Shown here: positions 4,318 through 37,433 of the stretch, piece by piece
Numbering within the stretch: position 1 is the first letter of the stretch
How the letters are laid out: each line of letters opens with the position of its first letter
Virus record (IMG/VR): IMGVR_UViG_2718217716_000005
Direction: 5' to 3' (one strand)
Origin: a virus
Lineage: Duplodnaviria; Heunggongvirae; Uroviricota; Caudoviricetes
DNA length: 37,433 nt
The notes under the pieces: model-generated
Told to the model about the DNA's origin: nothing
The model's input: only the letters and a program-made list of their open reading frames with translations
Databases searched by the model: none
Program-made: the position numbers and the translations under genes

Positions 4318-4621
4318 CGTCTTTTCTGCCTGTTTCTGAATTAAACAGAGTCAGAATAACAACCGCTGATAAATATGTGTTTTGCGGAAATTCAAAAAAA
4401 GCGTCACAGTACTTTTCGTGACGGAGCCGGTGAGGCAGGAACATAACGACAAAGAATGGACAGGCCAATACGATAACCGCATATTACCGGCTTATAATTG
4501 ATTTAACGATTCATGACGCTGCGTTCAGCACCTGAAAATATGCGTTATTTCAGAAACCCCTTGCCTGTATATGGCAATAGTATTGTTCCTGTTTTTATCA
4601 TTGATTTACATGGTGATGTTT

Positions 4622-5143
4622 ATGCAACTGATTAATGTTAAACGATATTACCCGGAACACAAACCCTATGGTAATGATGTACAGTATTTTCAGAGTGATG
4701 ATGGTAAGGATTTCTATGAGTCCCTGCCATTATTCACCAAAAAATATAAACTTTGTATAACACCTGACAGCGGCGTTATCTGCTCAATATCACAGGACGC
4801 CTCGGCGCTGTATCCTGCGGGATTTTCCGTGGTTGAGACAGACGAACTCCCTGAAGGCACTGATATTTCAGGAAACTGGAAGTTTGATAATGGCATCATC
4901 TCACGGCTTCCGGTCAATTACGACAAAAAAGCGGAAGAACTGCGCCAGTCATATCTTAATCAGGCATATGAACAAATTAATGACTGGAGAACAGAACTAC
5001 AACTGGGCACCATCAGTGATGAAGACAGAGCAGCACTGGCACGATGGATGGCATACATCAGTCAGGTGAAAAAAATGGTATTACCCGCCATTAAAACTGA
5101 AGCTGAATTTAACGCCATTAAATGGCCTGAGCAGCCACAGTAA
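4622..5143 (+). CDS. Tail fibre assembly chaperone (Tfa family)
   Basis: C-terminus ...DEDRAALARWMAYISQVKKMVLPAIKTEAEFNAIKWPEQPQ and central DASALYPAGFSVVE / GNWKFDNG are typical of Tfa proteins. Start chosen at Met 4622; the ORF could begin at 4571 or 4610. Confidence 0.7.
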   Translation: MQLINVKRYYPEHKPYGNDVQYFQSDDGKDFYESLPLFTKKYKLCITPDSGVICSISQDASALYPAGFSVVETDELPEGTDISGNWKFDNGIISRLPVNYDKKAEELRQSYLNQAYEQINDWRTELQLGTISDEDRAALARWMAYISQVKKMVLPAIKTEAEFNAIKWPEQPQ

Positions 5144-5146
5144 TAA

Positions 5147-5166
5147 AGAAGGCCGGAAGGCCTTCT
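5147..5166. terminator. Bidirectional hairpin terminator between convergent tail fibre and Tfa genes
   Basis: agaaggcc-ggaa-ggccttct, perfect 8-bp stem, with A-rich sequence before and T/A-rich after. Confidence 0.6.
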
Positions 5167-5174
5167 GAATATCA

Positions 5175-6056: not shown

Positions 6057-6616
6057 TAAATAGTCTCCTCTTCGTGGCTGTTTGCATACACGTAAATAAA
6101 CGTCTGCCATGCAGGTTTATAACGGTTCAGAATACATTCCAGCGCACCGCCTTCATAAATACGCAGCGGCGTGAGAATATCATCCAGCACATTCATGTTC
6201 CGGTAGCCGGTTTCACTGTTAATCGTGACAATACTGACCCACTGCGAATCCGGTGATGGCTGAATGTCAATCTGATAACCAAACTCCGCCGCAAACCGGA
6301 TATAAAATTCACGGTTCAGCGAGGGCTTCATCCGGTATTTATTTCCGGCATAACGCTGTCGCTCCGTTATGGTGGCTCCGGCCATATCACATTCAGGAAG
6401 GCCGAGATAACGCTCCCAGTCTTCCAGCAGCAGGCGCGACGTGTCAGGGAAACGCTCGGCAAGCAGCTGTTTACCCGTCCAGGAAACACGCGCTGTCGAA
6501 TGACTGAGGCCCAGACATAATGATGCCAGTACGGATGACGGACGCTTGTCCCATGCCAGCCCGTCAGGCAGTAACTGCAACAGGGCGCGCTGATGTGGGG
6601 TCAGGGTTACAGCCAT
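6056..6616 (-). CDS. Baseplate/tail protein (Mu gp48-like, DUF2313-type)
   Basis: Position between the baseplate J-like gene and the fibre; translation overlaps both neighbours. Confidence 0.6.
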
Positions 6617-27315: not shown

Positions 27316-27535
27316 TCGTGGCCGCCTTACTGATTTGTGAAATGAGTTGCAGGGTACGTTGCTGGTTTGCCAGCACCAGACGGGCTTCGTCCCGTTCACG
27401 CACAAGCACATGATTATTGTCTTCAAGACGCTGTGTCTTCTGGTGCATTCCCCATACCACGGCAGCCAGCACGCTCATCACCCCCAGCGCCGCCATACAC
27501 CCTCCGGCAATCAGGGCCGGTAAGGGATTATTCAC
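27146..27535 (-). CDS. Inner-membrane spanin-like protein (Rz-like); start uncertain (GTG proposed)
   Basis: Hydrophobic N-terminal segment PALIAGGCMAALGVMSVLAAVVW followed by a charged coiled region, immediately after the endolysin gene. The ORF track's Met at 27667 lies inside the endolysin gene. Confidence 0.45.
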   Translation of the reverse strand: MNNPLPALIAGGCMAALGVMSVLAAVVWGMHQKTQRLEDNNHVLVRERDEARLVLANQQRTLQLISQISKAATNEKQQNMQHSEEQQSIVRRSLATVPAASVPVPDDVADRVRRAVCEIRAGEAGADPR

Positions 27536-27608
27536 CGCAGCCACAGCACACCCCGGAGCACCACAACGACACACAACAGCGCAATCATGAGTGGTCGCCA
27601 GAAGCGGT

Positions 27609-28109
27609 TCAGACTTTCGGCAAATCGTAGCGACATAACCATTCATCCGCCGAACGGCGGGCCTCAAGGCCGGGGAGTTTTACCCCCTTTGAATAAATCC
27701 AGCGGATATACTGCTTACAGGACGCGGGCATCTGCCCGGCATTGATAAGGCGCAGGAGCGTGGAGTTGCGAAAGTTCGTTTCACCGGCCCAGAAAATCCA
27801 GGAGGCCAGCGCCACCGTCTGACCACGGGTAAGCGGCACCTGAACATGACGATCGATAGCCGCAAAGGCCCATTTCATGTCCTTTTCCAGCAGCTCCAGA
27901 CACTCTTCATCAGTTTTTGTCATACCCGGTTTCACATCCGGGCCGGTATGGCCGTAACAGATGGTGGGGGTGCCGGTGGGATCAATGTACGTGGTGTTTT
28001 CTTTCCCTTCCCAGTAGCCGGTGTAGTGCGTGGCAATGGTGAACGTCCCGGCTCCGGCCAGAACAAGGGCAATCAGCTTTTTACGCAGGGGTGCGGGGAG
28101 TTTTGGCAT
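27609..28109 (-). CDS. Endolysin, lysozyme-like with SAR-type N-terminal signal-anchor
   Basis: N-terminus KKLIALVLAGAGTFTIA is a Gly/Ala-rich weak transmembrane segment. Catalytic-region pattern E-x8-D-x5-T (YWEGK...DPTG.PTICYGHTG). Confidence 0.75.
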   Translation of the reverse strand: MPKLPAPLRKKLIALVLAGAGTFTIATHYTGYWEGKENTTYIDPTGTPTICYGHTGPDVKPGMTKTDEECLELLEKDMKWAFAAIDRHVQVPLTRGQTVALASWIFWAGETNFRNSTLLRLINAGQMPASCKQYIRWIYSKGVKLPGLEARRSADEWLCRYDLPKV

Positions 28110-28110
28110 T

Positions 28111-28148
28111 GTTACGCTGTCTCATGGTGTTCTCTGAGTCAGCGTAAC
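28111..28148. promoter_or_regulatory. Perfect 9-bp inverted repeat (gttacgctg ... cagcgtaac, 20-nt spacer) immediately upstream of the endolysin start codon
   Basis: Seen directly; the 3' arm ends 1 nt before the lys ATG on the minus strand. Confidence 0.5.
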
Positions 28149-28180
28149 CGTGGGAAAAAGTGGGCAGGATTTGCGGAATA

Positions 28181-28603
28181 TCAGAAAAGCCGGGGCTGCG
28201 TGCGTTCCTGATGCAGGCGGCGCTGGGTGCGGATAACGGAGTAAATCTGCGTCTCTGACATCTGGTAGTGGCGGCGCAGGGTTTCAATTTTTTCGCCCTG
28301 GCTCCAGCGGGAAAAAATTTCATTATTGCGCAGTTCGGTGAAAAGGGATTCACCGACCGGGAGATAATAACCACGCCCGCCCATGTACCCGGCCTGTGCG
28401 GCCGCAACTTTACGGGCAAGCATTCCCGCCTGAGCAGATTCAATCCCCTGACGGTGCAGTTCAGCACTGATCACATCAACCAGGTCCCGCAGCGTGCCGG
28501 GCCAGTTCTTTTTCAGCTCATCATCAGGAATGTCATCCAGACGGTCAATCAGCGCGTGCAGCTGTTCGCTGTCACCAAACATGCTCATCTGTGTTTCAGC
28601 CAT
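28181..28603 (-). CDS. Mor/C-family transcriptional activator (140 aa), the only member in the window
   Basis: Size and position directly upstream of lys. C-terminal helix-turn-helix-like IETLRRHYQMSETQIYSVIRTQRR, GGAGG ribosome-binding site. Confidence 0.7.
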   Translation of the reverse strand: MAETQMSMFGDSEQLHALIDRLDDIPDDELKKNWPGTLRDLVDVISAELHRQGIESAQAGMLARKVAAAQAGYMGGRGYYLPVGESLFTELRNNEIFSRWSQGEKIETLRRHYQMSETQIYSVIRTQRRLHQERTQPRLF

Positions 28604-28645
28604 ACCCGCCTCCGGTCATCATTACACAGGGCAAGTTTAAAATAA

Positions 28646-28669
28646 AAATCCCGCGCTGTGGCGGGATTT
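28646..28669. terminator. Hairpin aaatcccgc-gctgtg-gcgggattt (bidirectional terminator-like), left copy of a ~35-bp direct repeat
   Basis: 9-bp perfect stem flanked by A-run and T-run. Near-identical copy at 29291-29314. Confidence 0.6.
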
Positions 28670-28942
28670 AGGAATGTAACGAATAAACGAGCTTAACAAT
28701 ACCTGGACAAATATTGATCAGTTAATCGTGTAAGTGTATGATAAATATCATTTATTTATTCTTCTGAATATACCGATTGTTTTTTTACCACTGATGAGAT
28801 CATCACTGGTATATGCGAGCTGGTTGTCTTTAATTATCAAACATGCTTTGCCGTAAAAAAGCATGGAAAAAGACATAAAAACTAACGCTCTGAAGATAAC
28901 AAACCGTTCCTTTAACGTTTTTTTATACAGGACTATGTTCAT

Positions 28943-29284
28943 ATGACTTTTGGCCCCATCATTGAGTTTGAATCAGGCTATACCGATGACATGTACCAGT
29001 CCCTGCAGGATAATGGTATCAGATACACCCCTATTGCAGCTTTATCATACAATGTAACCGAAATGGTTGAGTTGCTCCATGCGGTTAACACGCCAGAAAC
29101 ATGGGCCGCTATTGTTCTCATCGTAAAAAAATGGATAAACCGACACAAGGATGCCAGTGTTGAATTAACCATGAATGAGAACGGGCAACTGACATCCGTA
29201 AAAATAAACGGCTACAACGTAAATGATCTGGATAAGCTTGGAGTACCCAGTTTGATTCGAGCTTCTTTTAAATCAGAGGAGTAA
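28943..29284 (+). CDS. Hypothetical protein (113 aa), opposite-strand low-GC insertion between GemA and the Mor/C activator
   Basis: ATG at 28943 after a very AT-rich 270-bp leader, followed immediately by a terminator hairpin. No recognisable motif. Confidence 0.6.
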   Translation: MTFGPIIEFESGYTDDMYQSLQDNGIRYTPIAALSYNVTEMVELLHAVNTPETWAAIVLIVKKWINRHKDASVELTMNENGQLTSVKINGYNVNDLDKLGVPSLIRASFKSEE

Positions 29285-29290
29285 AATAAG

Positions 29291-29314
29291 AAATCCCGCA
29301 CTGTGGCGGGATTT
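29291..29314. terminator. Hairpin aaatcccgc-actgtg-gcgggattt, right copy of the direct repeat
   Basis: Sits between the stop of the plus-strand gene (29284) and the stop of gemA (29318). Confidence 0.6.
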
Positions 29315-29317
29315 GGG

Positions 29318-29827
29318 TTAACAGGGGAATGATTTTTCATACAGCCTGCAAACGCGCTCATAACTCATCACTGCACGCTCCGACATATCCAGGGCTGCCA
29401 GCATTTTGCGGCGGTGCCAGCGTTTGAGACGCTCCAGCACATCAGAGGCCAGCTCGGGGTGTTGCTCCAGCCACTGCCAGTTAGCCACACCTTCGCCGCC
29501 GTTCTGCGCGGCCGTCTGCGATTTCACCCAGCGGTTAAGGGCCGTTTCCGCACCATCAGAAATAAAGCCCTGCCGGTGCATCACTTTCCAGATGGCGCGA
29601 ATTTTGGCGGTCACCGTACCCGGCTTTAAGGCCCGGTTAACCGGTTTCTGACGCACTTTAAAACCGCGTTTTTTGAAAACATCCAGTACGCGGGATAACT
29701 CATCCGGTGACATATCCCGGCAACTGGCTTTACCGGTGGCTGCCAGCAGTGCGGATGTATAGGTTTCATCATCCAGAGCAAGCTCGCGTTTTGCCACATG
29801 AATGGCAGATATCAGTTTTCCTCTCAT
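29318..29827 (-). CDS. gemA: GemA-like early regulatory protein
   Basis: 169-aa ORF with N-terminal pattern LISAIHVAKRELALDDETY...GKASCRDMSPDEL...FKKRGF typical of the Mu GemA family; last gene of the early block. Confidence 0.6.
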   Translation of the reverse strand: MRGKLISAIHVAKRELALDDETYTSALLAATGKASCRDMSPDELSRVLDVFKKRGFKVRQKPVNRALKPGTVTAKIRAIWKVMHRQGFISDGAETALNRWVKSQTAAQNGGEGVANWQWLEQHPELASDVLERLKRWHRRKMLAALDMSERAVMSYERVCRLYEKSFPC

Positions 29828-30135
29828 ACCGTATTTACCTTTTTACGGACATGGAAAGCCTTTTCTGGCTCATTCCACCGGATATGATGCGTTGGCGGAA
29901 TAATCATTATGTGCCAGCCATCTCTGGTTGTTATTCGACAGAAAAACTCACCGCTGTATAACACAATGGCCTGCTGAATAAGCGCATCCGCAGCCAGCTC
30001 AAGCAGATATCTTTTATCAAAAAGGCTGATAATTTTCCGGCATAACCACCGGGTGATAACAAATGCGCCGAAAAACGATGTGATATATAAACACCAGTAC
30101 AGCAGAGAAATATTGTCCGTTATTTGCTCATCCAT
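29824..30135 (-). CDS. Hypothetical early protein with N-terminal transmembrane segment (103 aa)
   Basis: ORF overlapping both neighbours; hydrophobic LLYWCLYITSFFGAFVI. Confidence 0.45.
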   Translation of the reverse strand: MDEQITDNISLLYWCLYITSFFGAFVITRWLCRKIISLFDKRYLLELAADALIQQAIVLYSGEFFCRITTRDGWHIMIIPPTHHIRWNEPEKAFHVRKKVNTV

Positions 30136-30460
30136 TGTGTATCTCCCGTAATTCCGGTAAAGCCGAAATATGGCACCAGTGCGTCACCTGTCCATCCTCA
30201 TCTTCAAGGCAGGCTCCGGTTTCTTCATCAACAAAAAAGCCTTCATACCCCATATGACCGATGCGCAGTTCCTGCCGGTGGTCATACTGAACAATCAGCA
30301 CAACAGCCTCCATATCAGGTGGGAAAGCATCATTCAGTGAATGCCAGGGATAACCTCGTAAATCCCCGAAATAAACACCGGTCAGCGTTCCGCCACAGAG
30401 CGGCATTCCGGCGGCACACACAAGAGGTTCATCTGATTCAACAAATAAGGTCGTTATCAT
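30128..30460 (-). CDS. Hypothetical early protein (110 aa)
   Basis: ORF with overlapping start and stop in the early operon. Confidence 0.45.
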   Translation of the reverse strand: MITTLFVESDEPLVCAAGMPLCGGTLTGVYFGDLRGYPWHSLNDAFPPDMEAVVLIVQYDHRQELRIGHMGYEGFFVDEETGACLEDEDGQVTHWCHISALPELREIHNG

Positions 30461-31008
30461 GGCGTTAACTCCTGTAATACAGCGTCCCCGGCAGTCCGAC
30501 GACGGTGATAAATAAAACTCACCGTGCCCTCGGATAATTCAAATTTCTCGCCTATTTCCCGGAAGGTAAGGCGTCGTGGCGACTCTGCATCCCGTAATTC
30601 ACGAATAAGACGAACATCATCGTCAGGTATACGGGTGAAGGGCAGCAATTCTCCGTATTTTTTCATGCTTATGCCCATATATCGCGCCCGATTATGAACA
30701 GAGTCCCGGTCTCGCCCCAGATATTCTCCTATTTGCTTACCGGTCATCGTTCTGGCATTTTTTCGGATAAATTTATCTTCATCAGGTTTAAATCTGGGAC
30801 GTTTGCATTTGAGCAACTGCGGGTAAATACCGCGTAATAAAATAATCCGGTTATATACTCCCCAGTAACTTCTTTTTACTCTGACAGCAATATCCTTAAC
30901 CGGGGTGGACGAATAAAGCGCAATCAGTAGCGCATCTTCTTCAGGTGTCCATGCGCGGACATGAGCGGGTGCCCGACCTTTTCGTCCCATGGGTTGTAAT
31001 ATCATCAT
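30457..31008 (-). CDS. Hypothetical DNA-binding early protein with several helix-turn-helix-like segments (183 aa)
   Basis: WTPEEDALLIALY (SANT/Myb-like), TGKQIGEYLGRDRDSVHNRARYMG, LTFREIGEKFELSEGTVSFIYHRRR. Confidence 0.5.
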   Translation of the reverse strand: MMILQPMGRKGRAPAHVRAWTPEEDALLIALYSSTPVKDIAVRVKRSYWGVYNRIILLRGIYPQLLKCKRPRFKPDEDKFIRKNARTMTGKQIGEYLGRDRDSVHNRARYMGISMKKYGELLPFTRIPDDDVRLIRELRDAESPRRLTFREIGEKFELSEGTVSFIYHRRRTAGDAVLQELTP

Positions 31009-31011
31009 GCA

Positions 31012-31527
31012 TCACCCCCTGACTCGCTTTTCAGCAGCATAAAACTCATCAGACAGTATTTCGGTCATTTTCCGTTTTGCGGAATCATCTTCGCACTGAA
31101 GGTAAATCACATCGTCAACGCAGAACCAGTTCACGGGGCCAAACAGTATTGCTGAGAAGTCAATGCCCAACCAGAACAACAGGGCATCGGTTCTGGCATA
31201 CGTGACGGGCGAATATTCACGCCACAGAATGTTCAGTTCATCAGAGGCAACACGCAGGGTTTTAGGTATACGTGATGTGCGCGGCGTGCAGCTCCAGCCA
31301 TTCGACGCAGTCGGTTTTCGCCATAAGTCGCGATGAAAAGGATATTTGTCATCCATAAAGCGCAGCCCCTTAAAACAAAATCCACTGATACCGGATACAA
31401 ATACCGGGCGGCACGCAACATTCAGCACGGCCTCAAGGCGTTTTGCCTCATCTTTTACCGTCTGGCAGTCCTGCTGGTATTTTTGCCACGCAGCCAGCGC
31501 GGAAGGGTTTGATGTTTTAAAGAACAT
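31012..31527 (-). CDS. Hypothetical early protein (171 aa)
   Basis: ORF in the early operon, tightly packed with neighbours. Confidence 0.45.
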   Translation of the reverse strand: MFFKTSNPSALAAWQKYQQDCQTVKDEAKRLEAVLNVACRPVFVSGISGFCFKGLRFMDDKYPFHRDLWRKPTASNGWSCTPRTSRIPKTLRVASDELNILWREYSPVTYARTDALLFWLGIDFSAILFGPVNWFCVDDVIYLQCEDDSAKRKMTEILSDEFYAAEKRVRG

Positions 31528-32060
31528 TACGCCACCTCCGCAGATATCCCGGCAGGTGCTGCCGTCCGGTCAACAATCAGGTAGCGCAGAACACGCGCGG
31601 TGATATTCCAGCCGCTTAAACCGCAGATGATGACACCAAGGCGTATGTCGATATACGCCATCACAAACTGGGGCACGCCTTCTTTCATGGCCTGCTCATC
31701 AACTTCAGCCACCACATAAACGGTTTCACAGGTCAGAACGCCCTGAGCAAATTCCCACGCCATCGACGGAATATCATGCCCCTCAATCCACGGCAGGGAT
31801 TTTCTGAAGCTGCACCACTGAACATCATCAGCCGCACATTCCTGGCTGCATTTGCGACGAACCGGCTGCACCGGGCGGGGACGCGGAATATCATAAAAAC
31901 CGTTACATTCCGTCAGCACGCCTGCATCAACCGCATCACGCAGAAAATAAACCATGGAGGATAGCGGCATATTCATTTTTTCTGCCAGAGAACGGCTGGT
32001 CAGACGGCCAGAAAAACGCAGCCAGTTTTTAACCCCTTCAAGCACTTTTGCATCAATCAT
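31527..32060 (-). CDS. Hypothetical early protein with N-terminal winged-helix-like segment (177 aa)
   Basis: ORF; N-terminal LTSRSLAEKMNMPLSSMVYFLRDAVDAGVL. Confidence 0.45.
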   Translation of the reverse strand: MIDAKVLEGVKNWLRFSGRLTSRSLAEKMNMPLSSMVYFLRDAVDAGVLTECNGFYDIPRPRPVQPVRRKCSQECAADDVQWCSFRKSLPWIEGHDIPSMAWEFAQGVLTCETVYVVAEVDEQAMKEGVPQFVMAYIDIRLGVIICGLSGWNITARVLRYLIVDRTAAPAGISAEVA

Positions 32061-32063
32061 GAA

Positions 32064-32606
32064 TTATTCCTCCGTAAGCGCCACATATTCAGAATGTTTA
32101 ATTTCCTGGCATTCTTCAGGAATACACCCGTTTATTTCCCTGCCATAAGCGCCTACTTTAAACACCACACACAGAGCATCACGGGAGAGCGACGGGGTCC
32201 ACCAGGAGTCCGTATTAAACATGGAGGGGATTCTCATTACCCCCAGCTTTTCACAGAGCCAGACAAGGAAATCAGGACGCTTCCTTAACTCGCGTTCAGC
32301 GGCTTCAATCATTGCGGCAATCGCCGGTCCTTCAGGGCATGACTCATCAGGTCTGGCTATAAAGCACTGTCCGCCACCGATAAAAGCCACATCATCGCGC
32401 TTACGCCAGCCCGCAGGTAGAGCACCAGAAAAATAAAACTCACTGATTACGTCCATGGCGAACGGCTTTAAGCGCAATCCGGCAGCGCCTGTATTTTTCA
32501 GTAACGCCCGAAGAATACTGTTGCGTAGCGGTAAAACAGTCTGTTGATATTTGGTGAAATATTTATTTGTCTGAGTTCTGTCTAATTTGAAATAAAAGTA
32601 TGTCAT
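32064..32606 (-). CDS. Hypothetical early protein (180 aa)
   Basis: ORF in the early operon. Confidence 0.45.
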   Translation of the reverse strand: MTYFYFKLDRTQTNKYFTKYQQTVLPLRNSILRALLKNTGAAGLRLKPFAMDVISEFYFSGALPAGWRKRDDVAFIGGGQCFIARPDESCPEGPAIAAMIEAAERELRKRPDFLVWLCEKLGVMRIPSMFNTDSWWTPSLSRDALCVVFKVGAYGREINGCIPEECQEIKHSEYVALTEE

Positions 32607-32703
32607 GTTTACGATTCCTTATTTTCAGCTTTCAGGCGCAGGCAGTCACCTGACGCGAGCGCCATAATTAAAACGATGTGATATTTAAAGATTTAATGCG
32701 GTG

Positions 32704-33234
32704 TTATTTATTCAGTCCGGCATCCTGTTCAAAAGGCTCGACTTCAAAATTTTCAGTACCTTTATTCACCTTAATACCGGCAATCCCTTTCACCGCATCC
32801 GGCTCTGCCAGGACAGCTTGCTTATTCACTTCCTCTTTCGTGCGGATGAATCGCTCAAGCCCCATACGGCGCAGCATTTCAATCACGCCTTCCACATCAC
32901 GGCTGACGCTGCATGATGGTTTTCCCAGCCGCCATGACACCGTTCCGGTGGTCAGATTGGCAGTTTTGGTTTCACCGCCGTTCGTCAGCTCATTGCGGTT
33001 GGTTTTACACCAGTCATGAATCCCCTTAAAAAGCACTTTGATTTCTTTTTTAAGGTTTTCAATCTGCGGCGTATAACGGGCGGTGATTTCTGCCACTTCG
33101 TCATTCATCGCCGTTTCCAGGCGCAGTGCCTCACGCTGCATATCCCCAAAGCGGCGGATATCGCGGCTGACCTCTTCACGGGTCTGCGGTGCCGCCTCGG
33201 CTGCGGCCTTTAATTTTGTAACGCGTTTTGCCAT
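32704..33234 (-). CDS. gam: Gam-like host-nuclease inhibitor (DNA-end binding)
   Basis: 176-aa protein with MAKRVTKLKAAAEAA... N-terminus and ...ELTNGGETKTANLTTGTVSWR...FIRTKEEVNKQAVL motifs characteristic of Mu Gam family. Confidence 0.7.
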   Translation of the reverse strand: MAKRVTKLKAAAEAAPQTREEVSRDIRRFGDMQREALRLETAMNDEVAEITARYTPQIENLKKEIKVLFKGIHDWCKTNRNELTNGGETKTANLTTGTVSWRLGKPSCSVSRDVEGVIEMLRRMGLERFIRTKEEVNKQAVLAEPDAVKGIAGIKVNKGTENFEVEPFEQDAGLNK

Positions 33235-33245
33235 TTTGTTTTTCC

Positions 33246-33617
33246 TTATTGCAGTGTGCCTGATGCTTTATGCACGCGGTGGCGTTTAATGATGGCATCC
33301 GCTCCAAAAGCCTGTGCAGATGCCTGAAATTCCGCTGAGAGAAACTGAATAATTGCAGGACTGTGATACTGGAGAATACTTGCATAAACGTCACAGAGTG
33401 ACGTCGGCCTGTTATCCGTATCACGTTCTGTTTTCACATCCACTCCAATCTTTTCATGCACTTCAACACAGTCATTGCCTGCCAACTTTTCGTCATGCGA
33501 AACATGATTAAATTCAAAAATAACGCGTACTTTGCTCATCCTGTTGTCCTCATTTCGTCTTAATAACTCATCCGGCGTCTGACCTGATGACAGAGCCGAA
33601 CCATGAAGTAACTTCAT
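33246..33617 (-). CDS. Hypothetical early protein (start at ATG overlapping the upstream stop)
   Basis: The ORF track extends to 33638; the Met at 33615-33617 gives an ATGA overlap with the upstream stop. Confidence 0.4.
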   Translation of the reverse strand: MKLLHGSALSSGQTPDELLRRNEDNRMSKVRVIFEFNHVSHDEKLAGNDCVEVHEKIGVDVKTERDTDNRPTSLCDVYASILQYHSPAIIQFLSAEFQASAQAFGADAIIKRHRVHKASGTLQ

Positions 33618-33880
33618 ACTTCCCAGTAGACCGTACATCCGCTTATGCGGGTGGCTTTTACACGGCGGCGCAGGCCATTGGTCTGAACAGTGATTTCAAT
33701 TTCACCGGTTCCCTTAACTTCGTTTACCGGCGGCGTGGTTTTCAGGGCATAACGTTGTGGGTAGCGTTTGCTGCGCTCCAGCACTGCACCGGCAAGTTCA
33801 GTCAGACGGCGTGCGCTGTTCAGGGAGTCGAATAAATTCATTTTGTTACCGCAGGATTGCATATTCATATAACACCTCAT
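33614..33880 (-). CDS. Hypothetical early protein (88 aa)
   Basis: ORF in the early operon. Confidence 0.4.
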   Translation of the reverse strand: MRCYMNMQSCGNKMNLFDSLNSARRLTELAGAVLERSKRYPQRYALKTTPPVNEVKGTGEIEITVQTNGLRRRVKATRISGCTVYWEV

Positions 33881-34108
33881 TTAGCTGACTTGTTTTGCAC
33901 CAACAGAACGGCATATTCCACTGTAAACCTCTGTCGCACCTTCGCGATCAAGTCCGGCAGATATCACCATTCGCGTGCGGTCATTAAATTCAAAAAGTAA
34001 ATCGCCACATTCTTTATTTTCGGCCAGTGAAATCACTTTCACGTTATCGAAATTAACCAGGTAAAAGCGTCCGTAGATATCAGGAATATTAAATGCAGCC
34101 ATAATCAC
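33881..34108 (-). CDS. Small early protein immediately after B (Mu kil position)
   Basis: 75-aa ORF whose ATG overlaps the B stop; size and position as Mu kil, no sequence-level confirmation. Confidence 0.4.
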   Translation of the reverse strand: MIMAAFNIPDIYGRFYLVNFDNVKVISLAENKECGDLLFEFNDRTRMVISAGLDREGATEVYSGICRSVGAKQVS

Positions 34109-35037
34109 ACCTGTGAGAGTAATTCAGGGTTGGTATAAACCTCTTTAAAGGCCGCATTAATATGTTTTTCTGTCAGCGCGGCACCTTCACCGCTGGCGGT
34201 GATCCACGCCTGGTTAAGCGTATGTGTCAGAACGCGTAAGGCTCCCGGCTTTTCAGCGATAGCCTGCATGACAGCCAGCTCGGCCTCACCACTAATCCCC
34301 CATGCCCTGGCAATAGCCAGCACATCCGCCTTTTTGGCCTTGCGAAGTTGTTTTGTACGGGCAAGACGGCTGAACAGGCGCGATAAATCATCAACGGTGC
34401 GGCGTCCACCCTTAAACAGTCCGCGCGGGTTACCAATAAGCACCATCCCGATCCCCGTGGCGTCCTGGATTGCACGCAGTTGTTCCAGACCGTCAATACC
34501 AAGATGATCCGCCTCATCAACAATCACCAGTCCACGAGTTCCCATCAGGCGACGGCGGATGGCGCGGGATAACGCCCCCTTGTTCGCGCGGGTGTAATCA
34601 ATCCCCAGTTCCTCTGCCAGCTCCAGCATACACTCCGTGACGCTGGAATGCGCGGGCGACAGGGTGATCATCCAGGTGTTCGGTTGCTCCTGACAGTAAT
34701 TGCGGGCCGTGGCCGTTTTACCCACACCCGGTACGCCCACAATGACGTTAATACAGCCCATCAGGCGAACCGCCTGAAACAGCGCGCGCAGCTCCTGGAC
34801 TGTCTGCGTTTCCACAAACTGCGGCGGTTCCGGCAGTGCGCTTTGTTTATTCCAGTTCTCATACCAGGAACGCAGGGAAGCAGCCACAGCAGCGTTATCG
34901 CCTTTATATTTTCCCTTACGGAAAGCCGATAATGTGCCGTCGGAAATTCCCGCCTCTCTGGCGATGGCATACTGCGTCAGTACGCCGCCATCAATAAGTT
35001 CATCAATGGTCTTGATTACATCGTTTATATCGGTCAT
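34105..35037 (-). CDS. B: MuB-like transposition ATPase / target DNA activator
   Basis: Walker A VGVPGVGKT, DEAD-like IVDEADHL, and ...KPGALRVL... motifs matching Mu B; downstream of the transposase. Confidence 0.85.
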   Translation of the reverse strand: MTDINDVIKTIDELIDGGVLTQYAIAREAGISDGTLSAFRKGKYKGDNAAVAASLRSWYENWNKQSALPEPPQFVETQTVQELRALFQAVRLMGCINVIVGVPGVGKTATARNYCQEQPNTWMITLSPAHSSVTECMLELAEELGIDYTRANKGALSRAIRRRLMGTRGLVIVDEADHLGIDGLEQLRAIQDATGIGMVLIGNPRGLFKGGRRTVDDLSRLFSRLARTKQLRKAKKADVLAIARAWGISGEAELAVMQAIAEKPGALRVLTHTLNQAWITASGEGAALTEKHINAAFKEVYTNPELLSQV

Positions 35038-35112
35038 ATTATTACCTCGCGTTTGTGTAGTTCCTTTGTTTAATCAAATAACCTGAGTCGCCGCTCGGGT
35101 TATTTTTTTATT

Positions 35113-37200
35113 TCAGGCCAGAGGGTCATTTTCTTTTAATTTCGCTTCAAGCAGCTGCAATCCCCGCTGGAAATTACGCTCGTATTCTTCATCAGGTTCA
35201 TCCTCAGCGACCGGTTGCTGAACGGTCACTGTATTACCCACAGGGCGGTATATATTTTCCAGCCATGGCTCCTGTGGCTTGTGCTCCAGCACGTTGACAA
35301 CCTCATCCTCGGCATCACGGATTTTTTCCTCTGCGCGTTTACGCATACCTTTAAGGCGCTGCTGCTGTTTGTAGTATTCCGCGCTGACCGGGAAGGCTTC
35401 GCGTTTATTGCCGTCCCATACCGCCTCGCAAATCACGCTGCCATCCGGGCGACGCACGGTAATTCGTTCGGCATCATGAATGTCATAGCTGATAAGCACT
35501 TTGCGGCCATGTTCATCACGCAGCTCGGGCGCGTAGTAAATATTATTCAGCCAGCGTATTTCACAGCGTCTTACAGGGCGTTCCACCATCGGCCGGAACA
35601 TGTCCCGCAGTTCAACATCGGACAGCCATTCAATTTCCGTGTCCTCTTCCGCCAGGCGTTTTTTTCTGAACTCCGCCGGGCTGTAATGTTTGCCGTTCGG
35701 CTTCATGGGTAATTCATCGTGCGGCCGGCTGTTGTACCACTCAACGCCGTCACGAATGGCATCAATCAGTTCAGACCAGGACGGTAAATCACGCATCGCT
35801 GACTGCTGCCGGGCGTTCAGCCGCTTGCCCTGTTGCAGGGCAGTGAATGCCGAGCGTAAATCGCGGTTGGTTTTACGTAACGTCTCGCGATCTGCACCTT
35901 TCCCGAAATAGGTGCGGTATTTACGGGCTATGCGCATCGGTAATGTGCGGTTAAGCCGTTCGATAATGCCCCGTCCCTGCGGGTTACCGGCAATCCCTGT
36001 CGGGTGATTAATCCCCAGTCGTGGCAGGATCCCCACAATCTCCTTATCCAGGATGTCGGCGGTTTCCCCGGAGCCATTATCCGAGTAATACAGAAACGGT
36101 TTGCCGTGATGGCGAATACCGTGCTGTATGGCACCGGCTACGGCGAAAACATTTTCAGCCAGGTCAAGGCTCCAGCCCACCACAAAGCGCGTGCCACCGT
36201 CGATAACAAAGGTCACTTCCGGTGCAAATGGCCGCCCGTGAACCGGGTGCGTGCATTTCAGCTTCATGCCGTGACCGTCACCAATCCAGACATAATTCAC
36301 CGGCATTTTTGACCAGTCGCGGCGCGTGAACCCCTCAAGCTGGCGGTATTCACTGCCGGTCACCCGGCCTTTTTGTTTCACCACTTCCGGCAGCTTCTTC
36401 ATTGCGCGGCGAATGGTGTCATAAGACGGCATGATATCGAGCATATAAGGCTCATCAGCGTGCCGCTGCTGCCATTCAGCAACAAAATCCTCGTAAGCCT
36501 CGGTCATTGGTCGGCCGTTTGACTGGCGATACTGCGCCAGAAACTCGGGGAGCCAGTTAATATCTTCGGCTTTTATTTCCTGACGTTTACCCGGTGCCAG
36601 TAAAAGAAGGCGTTCAGCGGCGTTCTGCGCCTTGTTAAAGGCCGCAATCCAGCGTTTCAGCGTGATTTCACTCAACGCGCGGCGGTTTCCCTTTTTGGCG
36701 TTCGCCGTCTCAACCATTGCCACAATGCGCTCGTCCAGTTGTGAGCGTGACAGGCGGTCAACGATAAAACGGATGGCTTTAGCGCAGTTGAAACCGGGTT
36801 GTTGCGCGAATTTCAGCACCTCGCTGACAATCGCAATTCGTGCTTCAGCCACCTGGCGCTGTTTTTCTGTCAGGGCATTGAGGCGTTCGACCATCAGTTG
36901 GGGTGAACCGCGATATGCCTCCACCGCATCAACCACGTCAGGTGAGCGTCTGGCCTTTGTCACCACCGGAGCCGGTGATTCGTCGGCTTTTTGCGTCATC
37001 AGTTGCAGGGCGTAGCGTTCACGTAAAGCCTGCTGCGTTACTTCAGGTAAACAGTCGATGCTGTATTCAAAACCTTTACAGCCTTTCTGGCGGCGTCTGC
37101 TGGTTTCGCTGGTTGCATACTTCCTGATTGAATAGCGGACGCCTTGCTCCGTTCCGGGCATTCCCGGTAATCCAACCAGCTCTTTAACTGAAGCAAACAT
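35113..37200 (-). CDS. A: Mu-type DDE transposase A
   Basis: 695-aa protein with N-terminal DNA-binding region, central DDE core (...WIGDGHGMK...YYSDNGSGE...), and C-terminal ...ISYDIHDAERITVRRPDGSVICEAVWDGNKRE... resembling the MuA C-terminus. Confidence 0.9.
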   Translation of the reverse strand: MFASVKELVGLPGMPGTEQGVRYSIRKYATSETSRRRQKGCKGFEYSIDCLPEVTQQALRERYALQLMTQKADESPAPVVTKARRSPDVVDAVEAYRGSPQLMVERLNALTEKQRQVAEARIAIVSEVLKFAQQPGFNCAKAIRFIVDRLSRSQLDERIVAMVETANAKKGNRRALSEITLKRWIAAFNKAQNAAERLLLLAPGKRQEIKAEDINWLPEFLAQYRQSNGRPMTEAYEDFVAEWQQRHADEPYMLDIMPSYDTIRRAMKKLPEVVKQKGRVTGSEYRQLEGFTRRDWSKMPVNYVWIGDGHGMKLKCTHPVHGRPFAPEVTFVIDGGTRFVVGWSLDLAENVFAVAGAIQHGIRHHGKPFLYYSDNGSGETADILDKEIVGILPRLGINHPTGIAGNPQGRGIIERLNRTLPMRIARKYRTYFGKGADRETLRKTNRDLRSAFTALQQGKRLNARQQSAMRDLPSWSELIDAIRDGVEWYNSRPHDELPMKPNGKHYSPAEFRKKRLAEEDTEIEWLSDVELRDMFRPMVERPVRRCEIRWLNNIYYAPELRDEHGRKVLISYDIHDAERITVRRPDGSVICEAVWDGNKREAFPVSAEYYKQQQRLKGMRKRAEEKIRDAEDEVVNVLEHKPQEPWLENIYRPVGNTVTVQQPVAEDEPDEEYERNFQRGLQLLEAKLKENDPLA

Positions 37201-37202
37201 AA

Positions 37203-37433
37203 TTATGCGACCTTACGAATGTAGCGGCTGGGCCAAATCTCCTCGGGTGGTACACCCAGACATTCCGCAATAATCCCCTCATACTTGGGAACATGGCGGT
37301 ATACCGCGTTGTACAGGTTGTTCTGACCTACGCCAGCTTTACGGGCCAGCGCCCTCATACTTCCTTCTCTGGCTCTGACTTCCCCCAAGATTCTTTGAGG
37401 ATGCCAATCAGGCTTAACTTCATTTCTCGCCAT
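37203..37433 (-). CDS. ner: Ner-like DNA-binding early regulator
   Basis: 76-aa protein with ...DWHP...II...LG..PEEIWPSRY... pattern of Mu Ner family; stop overlaps the transposase start; ATG is the last codon of the window. Confidence 0.8.
   Translation of the reverse strand: MARNEVKPDWHPQRILGEVRAREGSMRALARKAGVGQNNLYNAVYRHVPKYEGIIAECLGVPPEEIWPSRYIRKVA

Follow-up and report, generated by a model that had tools for sequence, protein, structure and literature searches.

Ten small genes between B and gemA of a Mu-like prophage: a variant of the semi-essential early region

The present data describe a block of ten small genes between the transposition gene B and gemA in the window, the whole 37,433-nucleotide stretch of tailed-phage DNA analysed here (IMG/VR record IMGVR_UViG_2718217716_000005). 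The block is a real but ordinary feature, a Mu-like semi-essential early region, and it very probably forms the semi-essential section of the early operon in a Mu-like prophage that looks intact and is of the Escherichia coli O157:H7 type. Its gene content and homologies map in part onto Mu, every gene is under purifying selection, and the region varies as a mosaic among relatives. For decades the semi-essential region of Mu has been recognised as harmful to the host, and the block, a well-annotated variant of it, is not in itself surprising; what it adds is a gene-by-gene map onto Mu, evidence of selection for every gene, and a separation of the core (gam or a DUF3164 gene, and gp11) from exchangeable cassettes.

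Layout and predicted expression of the block

On the minus strand the genes run in the order ner-A-B, ten co-directional ORFs and gemA. The upstream boundary is B (34105-35037, minus strand), an AAA ATPase transposition protein annotated by PGAP as 'AAA family ATPase' and adjoining a Mu-type transposase at 35113-37200; the downstream boundary is gemA (29318-29827, minus strand; PF06252, E 6.4e-30; 46% identity to Mu GemA), the last gene of the early operon. This position, between B and gemA and on the strand of A and B, is that of the Mu semi-essential region, as the initial annotation had proposed. That annotation had also described about ten tightly packed ORFs at 29824-33880; ten are confirmed here, nine of them within this interval and the tenth (33881-34102) just past its end. 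Successive genes are spaced by -8 to +12 nt, except at two gaps of 74 and 97 nt, and a GGAG-like ribosome-binding site (Shine-Dalgarno) is present at all ten. Each ORF matches a PHROG phage family at E below 1e-30. With the O157:H7 relative L003 as reference, pN/pS lies between 0.08 and 0.40 in every gene; these are therefore real genes, and chance ORFs are ruled out. Scans of all ten proteins against NCBIfam and against PADLOC, whose models describe defence proteins and not their inhibitors, returned nothing useful, and an Rfam scan of 27500-37433 gave a single chance-level match.

Co-transcription with A and B from the early promoter is suggested by the tight spacing, by promoter- and terminator-like sites whose frequency does not exceed that of shuffled sequence, and by a hairpin after gemA. 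By analogy with Mu biology, induction would lead to minus-strand transcription that continues the ner-A-B message through the block, with translation largely coupled and transcription expected to stop at the strong terminator-like hairpin at 29314-29291, immediately past the gemA stop codon. The operon ends after gemA and is followed by a single Mor/C-family gene, an arrangement that differs from that of Mu. A strain-specific 609-nt moron, extra relative to the O157:H7 version of the prophage, sits between gemA and the Mor/C gene, at the early terminator.

Gene content

Directly after B lies a gene for a 73-residue protein (33881-34102, minus strand; PGAP CDS WP_046201640; 75 residues if started at GTG 34108), assigned to PHROG 3375 (E 6.5e-46) and with a pN/pS of 0.08. 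It has no Mu counterpart, and homologues 52-64% identical occupy the same position in four related loci (L034, L036, L038 and L039). In these loci, as in the window, it intervenes between B and a homologue of Kil (33614-33868, minus strand; phrog_2679 'Kil', E 6e-44; pN/pS 0.10), which probably starts at 33868 and encodes 84 residues, a start at 33880 giving 88. Pairwise BLASTP to Mu Kil is weak (36% over 39 residues), and hhalign against the Mu Kil family gives a probability of 97.5% (E 6.6e-12; 74 aligned columns); judged by this comparison, the 84-residue protein is homologous to Mu Kil over its whole length. Because the similarity is remote (22% identity in the profile alignment), division inhibition is a function that we only infer for this gene. 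The 74-nt gap that follows (33540-33613, minus strand) is, from blastn of the window against L003 and the L003 annotation, evidently a deletion scar: O157:H7 relatives carry two extra genes there, which a PHROG scan assigns to phrog_1518 'host nuclease inhibitor' (93 residues) and phrog_4107 (90 residues). Apparently owing to this scar, the next ORF was called over-extended, at 130 residues; its true start is placed at 33539 (33246-33539, minus strand; 97 residues; pN/pS 0.40), because the longer ORF matches phrog_2230 only from residue 36 onwards and because PGAP annotates it so. Comparison of this protein with Mu gp7 by hhalign gave E 0.015 and a probability of 3%, and the only phages of the collection to have the gene are two Stx phages, which carry it in their Mu-like insert.

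Gam, the one product of the block whose biochemistry is already known, is a Ku-like inhibitor of host nucleases that binds double-strand DNA ends. The gam gene of the window (32704-33234, minus strand) matches PF07352 across profile positions 1-149 of 149 (E 1.1e-39; 136 bits, cut-off 28.3), is 55% identical to Mu Gam at full length over 175 residues, and matches PDB entry 2p2u at E 2.9e-9. Its product is the host-nuclease inhibitor Gam, which by homology would bind double-strand DNA ends, block exonucleases and keep RecBCD-type nucleases from attacking linear phage DNA.

The 97-nt gap 3' of gam harbours a conserved non-coding hairpin element (32631-32680, minus strand), recognised from the sequence and from its alignment with loci of Mu, SfMu and IMG/VR. 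An AT-rich stretch is followed by the hairpin, whose arms GGCGC (32663-32659) and GCGCC (32639-32635) enclose the conserved loop CGTCAGGxGACTG, and then by a trailing TGAA. In the alignment 89% of cells are paired, with compensatory changes at two pairs; no Rfam family matched the element. It always lies directly upstream of a DUF5420 or gp11 gene, and Mu has the same element after gam, at about 6358-6403.

In the window the element precedes the gene for a 180-residue, probable DUF5420-family protein (32064-32606, minus strand; phrog_2260, E 2e-74), which is missing from Mu and corresponds, at 40% identity, to gp11 of SfMu, annotated as DUF5420. The protein itself has no Pfam match at E below 0.1; of the relatives found by its family profile, 19 of 22 match PF17457, the best at E 9e-28. 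One DUF5420 relative adjoins a primase in a non-transposable phage. The model of the protein is confident (pLDDT 93), and fold searches with it returned neither a characterised structural neighbour nor a functional clue. The Mu gp11 homologue (31527-32060, minus strand; 177 residues; phrog_1949, E 7.5e-101) is 66% identical to Mu gp11 over 177 residues and has a Gp11_C domain (PF25754, E 4.7e-40; 136 bits, cut-off 27) behind an N-terminal region that is strongly conserved; no solved relative was found. The winged helix that the initial annotation had read into this N-terminus was not borne out, phmmer giving only a match to an AsnC regulator at E 0.71 and the profile search none. The Mu gp12 homologue (31012-31527, minus strand; 171 residues) is 52% identical to Mu gp12 over 169 residues, and PF26885 is a precomputed match in each of its 46 database homologues; its AF2 model (pLDDT 72) had no informative PDB match and gave no clue to function. 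That DUF5420 and gp12 are paralogues is suggested, though not established, by a deeper DUF5420 profile, which yields a weak full-length match (E 3.6e-4; probability 37%; 159 collinear columns), and by secondary-structure elements in the same order in the two models; BLASTP gives E 0.097 and shallow profiles a probability of 0.2%. Literature searches on DUF5420, on the RefSeq protein accessions and on the functions of Mu gp11 and gp12 returned nothing relevant.

Downstream of gp12 lies the gene for a 183-residue protein (30457-31008, minus strand; phrog_323, E 1e-55; sub-threshold helix-turn-helix (HTH) Pfam matches) that agrees with the multi-HTH protein of the initial annotation: it contains three HTH repeats, is an extended relative of Mu gp9 (33% identity over residues 66-166), and is found in only some relatives. 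The next gene (30128-30460, minus strand; 110 residues; phrog_6925, E 5.7e-50) has homologues restricted to E. coli and Salmonella, without a Pfam family, and it is 80-84% identical in loci where neighbouring genes are about 60-68% identical. A possible resemblance of its C-terminal 'VTHW..ALPE' to DUF551 was rejected, since a Pfam scan of four members of its family, at E up to 10, found no DUF551 match. The last gene (29824-30135, minus strand; phrog_17269, E 1.6e-32; pN/pS 0.21) encodes the membrane protein expected from the earlier reading; it has 103 residues, and a single transmembrane helix is predicted near its N-terminus (residues 9-27, Kyte-Doolittle 1.87). The 73-, 97-, 110- and 103-residue genes are assignable to PHROG families only. 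The view that Gam alone could be assigned was nevertheless too pessimistic, as Kil is recognised by profile, three further genes are homologues of Mu gp11, gp12 and gp9, and one is a probable DUF5420 member.

Relatives and mosaic variation

The window is 100% identical to the chromosomes of E. coli M1 and M3, and among 5,426 complete E. coli genomes roughly 230 have a block about 93% identical. The Mu-like prophage of O157:H7 and other STEC (NZ_CP062769, 2968241-2978643; also Mu-like inserts in the Stx phages LC727881 and LC727895) has about 93% nucleotide identity across the block and shares the order of all ten genes, but it has five genes that the window lacks, two between kil and the 97-residue gene (one of them phrog_1518) and three between the 110- and 103-residue genes. 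The O157:H7 prophage is probably of the Sp18 type of strain Sakai.

In Mu (NC_000929, Mup05-Mup15, kil to gp15), small genes are likewise tightly packed at the same position and on the same strand between B and gemA; the Mu region comprises 14 ORFs, co-transcribed with A and B, that specify lethal host-directed functions (PMC3325207). Both phages have kil, gam, gp11, gp12 and a gp9-type HTH protein, although that of the window, with its three repeats, lies after gp12, whereas that of Mu lies before gam. The window has no detectable Mu gp6, gp8, gp13, gp14 or reverse-strand gp15, and any relationship between gp7 and the 97-residue gene would be remote; instead the window carries the 73-residue, DUF5420, 110-residue and 103-residue membrane genes. 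Five of the ten genes (73-, 97-, 110- and 103-residue, and DUF5420) lack a detectable Mu counterpart, and the ORFs do not all correspond to Mu genes of known function. DNA identity to Mu is only about 68% and is confined to gam-gp12. SfMu (NC_027382) has its DUF5420 gene between gam and the Mu gp11 homologue, with the same hairpin before it; it is otherwise Mu-like (gp6-gp9, gp13-gp15) and is without the 73-, 97-, 110- and 103-residue genes. Tip of D3112 and Aqs1 of DMS3, small host-disabling proteins of Mu-like transposable phages of Pseudomonas, offer an analogy only; both genes are located in the early region, and neither protein has sequence similarity to any protein of the block. Aqs1 is reported to inhibit type IV pili via PilB (PMC13436744).

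In 53 related phage loci the distance from B to gemA varies between 2.5 and 6.2 kb and the genes come in about 34 orders, which confirms a mosaic accessory region and accords with the variation that had been anticipated. The region evolves by gain, loss and replacement of cassettes around a stabler core of gam, or of the DUF3164 gene that occupies its slot in some relatives, and gp11, the most constant gene beside either. Further, gp11, gp12 and the 110-residue gene are conserved across lineages and are not variable cargo. This picture of core and cassettes helps in choosing candidates for toxicity and defence-inhibition screens, of which the strongest are DUF5420, gp11, gp12 and the unusually conserved 110-residue gene.

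Possible roles and alternative readings

As a semi-essential early region, the block would supply Kil, which by homology may block host cell division, and Gam, which may protect DNA ends as set out above. The other eight small proteins are most likely non-essential helpers that tune host physiology or DNA transactions in replicative transposition, with the three-HTH gp9-like protein as a putative DNA binder; that most of the genes have been gained or lost among the relatives is consistent with their being dispensable for plaque formation.

It is possible, though unlikely, that the block serves mainly as an anti-defence island in which most of the small proteins inhibit host immunity (restriction, RecBCD-linked or abortive-infection systems) and in which cassette turnover reflects an arms race. 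The anti-nuclease Gam, its substitution by DUF3164 in some relatives, the phrog_1518 gene of the O157 relatives, whose slot is empty in the window, the highly variable gene order and the small size and early transcription of the genes would all fit such an island. However, besides Gam no protein of the block matched a characterised inhibitor, whether in the Pfam, PHROG, NCBIfam and PDB sequence searches or by fold, and gp11, gp12 and the 110-residue gene are constant across lineages; an anti-defence role for the block genes is speculation. That the ORFs are instead decaying remnants or chance frames in a defective prophage is extremely improbable: the single deletion scar and the one ORF over-extended by it stand against purifying selection on all ten genes, intact ribosome-binding sites and PHROG matches for each, and reading frames intact in hundreds of genomes.

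A semi-essential region of host-directed functions is also preferred to a reading, which we regard as doubtful, whereby DUF5420, gp11, gp12 and the upstream hairpin form a DNA/RNA-binding module for replicative transposition or DNA repair, equal to the 'arm'- or 'cim'-type functions of Mu and not concerned with host takeover. The constancy of gp11, the hairpin or palindrome always found before DUF5420 or gp11, the weak HTH-like match in the conserved gp11 N-terminus, and the shared secondary-structure order and weak profile match of DUF5420 and gp12 would favour such a module. Yet the HTH assignment of gp11 is not significant and a DUF5420 relative lies beside a primase in a non-transposable phage. 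Further, at 14 of the 78 loci with gp11 both DUF5420 and gp12 are missing; an obligate neighbour of gp11 is thereby ruled out, and the three form no obligate module. To our knowledge, the 'arm' and 'cim' phenotypes have never been mapped to these ORFs. It is quite unlikely, but conceivable, that DUF5420 and gp12 constitute one phage-restricted superfamily whose fold lacks any solved or characterised relative and whose C-terminal tail docks a host protein (e.g., a nuclease, replisome or defence component), and that the upstream hairpin or palindrome is a cis-regulatory site for the distal early operon, part of the block then being an unrecognised host-hijack or anti-defence module. Such a module would be common to transposable and non-transposable phages, and the DUF5420-gp12 superfamily would unite its proteins. 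Its members would have a nearly invariant tail at the C-terminus, EIK(K/H)SE(F/Y)xALTEE in DUF5420 and EILSDEF in gp12.

The predicted early operon and its ten small genes

The tightly packed small genes between B and gemA (29824-34102) are, by sequence comparison, the semi-essential early region of a Mu-like prophage. All lie on the minus strand in a predicted Mu-type early operon occupying the right-hand third of the window, in which a ner-like gene (37203-37433), the Mu transposase gene (35113-37200) and B, encoding an AAA ATPase (34105-35037), precede the ten small ORFs, which are followed by gemA (29318-29827). The initial annotation had placed an uncharacterized early accessory block in this position, and this placement stands; nine of the ORFs fall within 29824-33880, and the tenth (33881-34102) lies between that end and B. 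Intergenic spacing is -8 to +12 nt, except for one 74-nt and one 97-nt gap, and a GGAG-type ribosome-binding site precedes each start codon. Mechanical ORF calls were over-long in two cases. The "130-aa" ORF is 97 aa with a start at 33539, because its PHROG match begins at residue 36 and PGAP agrees, and for the Kil-like gene 33868 is the probable start. A strong terminator-like hairpin (29314-29291) lies directly past the gemA stop. Over 28000-35200, promoter- and terminator-like sites showed no excess relative to shuffled sequence.

Each of the ten proteins falls in a PHROG phage family (E 1e-32 to 1e-101), and the earlier view that only the Gam-like gene is assignable proved too pessimistic, as homologs of Kil, gp11, gp12 and gp9 and a probable DUF5420 protein were identified. 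Gam (32704-33234) is 55% identical to Mu Gam, the 177-aa protein (31527-32060) is 66% identical to Mu gp11 and carries PF25754 (Gp11_C), the 171-aa protein (31012-31527) is 52% identical to Mu gp12, and GemA is 46% identical to Mu GemA. Residues 66-166 of the 183-aa protein (30457-31008) are 33% identical to Mu gp9, although it contains three HTH repeats and Mu gp9 two. The 84-aa protein (33614-33868) resembles Mu Kil weakly by BLAST; however, profile-profile comparison aided by an intermediate sequence from the L035 phage locus matched the whole length (probability 97.5%, E 6.6e-12), and the protein is therefore a true Kil homolog. Comparison with Mu proteins found no counterpart for the 180-aa protein (32064-32606), which is 40% identical to SfMu gp11, annotated DUF5420; 19 of 22 of its distant relatives match PF17457. 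Searches of Pfam, NCBIfam and PDB returned no relative of the 73-aa (33881-34102), 97-aa (33246-33539), 110-aa (30128-30460) or 103-aa (29824-30135) proteins, the last with one predicted N-terminal transmembrane helix.

In Mu, the semi-essential region comprises 14 ORFs in a long early transcript with A and B and specifies host-lethal functions, its deletion having restored cell viability after infection (PMC3325207). By homology, the Kil homolog would block division, and Gam would shield DNA ends against host exonuclease by binding them; of the ten block genes, these two alone can be assigned an activity. The suggestion that the block genes are candidates for anti-defense is speculative, since only Gam among them resembles a characterized inhibitor, and several of them are conserved core rather than variable cargo. 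The block is real and correctly located but ordinary, belonging to a well-known type of phage region, and offers modest leads in the DUF5420/gp12 fold, the conserved 110-aa gene and a hairpin element after gam.

Variation and constraint among relatives

The block is 100% identical in the chromosomes of E. coli M3 and M1, both mouse isolates, and a ~93%-identical Mu-like prophage is present in ~230 of the 5,426 complete E. coli genomes, including many of O157:H7. Two Stx phages carry an inserted prophage of the same type. O157 strain Sakai has a prophage, Sp18, that is described as Mu-like and apparently intact (PMC2669165), and the O157 relative compared here is probably of this type. Against that O157:H7 relative (L003), each block gene has a pN/pS of 0.08-0.40 and is therefore under purifying selection. 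The O157:H7 version has five genes that are missing from the window. Two of them, one a phrog_1518 "host nuclease inhibitor", follow kil and precede the 97-aa gene, and their loss accounts for the 74-nt scar at 33540-33613; the other three separate the 110-aa and 103-aa genes.

The expectation that relatives vary here was borne out, as 53 IMG/VR loci with B, gp11 and gemA have 2.5-6.2 kb between B and gemA and show about 34 gene orders (an approximate count from simple ORF calling). The most constant pair is gam and gp11. In one prophage lineage (L034 and L036-L039), the gam slot holds a 212-aa DUF3164 protein (PF11363, E 8e-77; e.g., L036 5273-5911), which suggests that Gam and DUF3164 are functional alternatives. 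The 110-aa protein has relatives in E. coli and Salmonella only. It is 80-84% identical across loci in which the genes beside it reach about 60-68% and A, B, gp11 and gp12 58-78%, a sign of unusually strong constraint or of recent exchange.

DUF5420, gp12 and a conserved hairpin

DUF5420 is a small family (26 representative clusters among 1.84 billion proteins) whose C-terminal motif, EIK(K/H)SE(F/Y)xALTEE, is almost invariant. DUF5420 and gp12, which lie on either side of gp11, are alike in order of secondary-structure elements and in N- and C-terminal motifs, and their profiles align collinearly (E 3.6e-4, probability 37%); they may be distant paralogs. The predicted structure of the gp12 homolog (pLDDT 72) is weaker than that of DUF5420, and neither model yielded a functional clue. 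One DUF5420 relative adjoins a primase in a contig of a non-transposable phage, so the family is not bound to transposition. Nor do gp11, DUF5420 and gp12 form an obligate module, since gp11 neighbors both in 33 loci, gp12 alone in 24, DUF5420 alone in six and neither in 14. Two tandem DUF5420 paralogs lie upstream of gp11 in L034 (5473-6021 and 5997-6602). In SfMu, an unannotated 515-nt stretch (4443-4958) follows the Mu gp11 homolog in the position of Mu gp12, and may represent a gp12 gene that is disrupted or was left unannotated.

Within the 97-nt gap that follows gam is a conserved non-coding element (32631-32680, minus strand), made up of an AT-rich stretch and then a hairpin in which GGCGC (32663-32659) pairs with GCGCC (32639-32635) around the loop CGTCAGGTGACTG, with TGAA thereafter. 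The window prophage shares the element with Mu (about 6358-6403), with SfMu and with loci that are more distant, although coding DNA on either side is only ~68% identical. It invariably stands immediately upstream of DUF5420 or gp11, after gam or DUF3164 alike. Among 20 different versions, pairing holds in 89% of cells, with compensatory changes in two pairs. A short reading frame starting within it encodes, on inspection, a peptide not conserved between Mu and the window, and no Rfam family matched. As it has no T-run, it is not a classical terminator; the data are compatible with either an RNA hairpin or a palindromic protein-binding site. In L035, two copies (4524-4554 and 5141-5172) surround an inserted 192-aa gene between gam and DUF5420; the element is a possible marker of cassette boundaries.

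The region downstream of gemA

Between gemA and the lysozyme gene lies a sole Mor/C-family activator gene (28181-28603, minus strand), 40% identical to Mu C versus 27% to Mu Mor, and homologs of gp18-gp20 are absent. Given the single Mor/C gene and the lack of gp18-gp20, a two-step transcription cascade may operate instead of the three-step cascade of Mu. A 609-nt insertion of lower GC (28673-29281) separates gemA from the Mor/C gene; on its plus strand is a 113-aa ORF (28943-29284) matching nothing in Pfam or PHROG. Among 5,426 E. coli genomes the insertion occurs only in M1 and M3, and the O157 relative lacks it. Minus-strand hairpins bracket it at 29314-29291 and 28669-28646; these are two nearly identical copies of the terminator hairpin of the early operon, AAATCCCGCCACAG(T/C)GCGGGATTT. 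The insertion looks like a moron at the early terminator, with the terminator duplicated.
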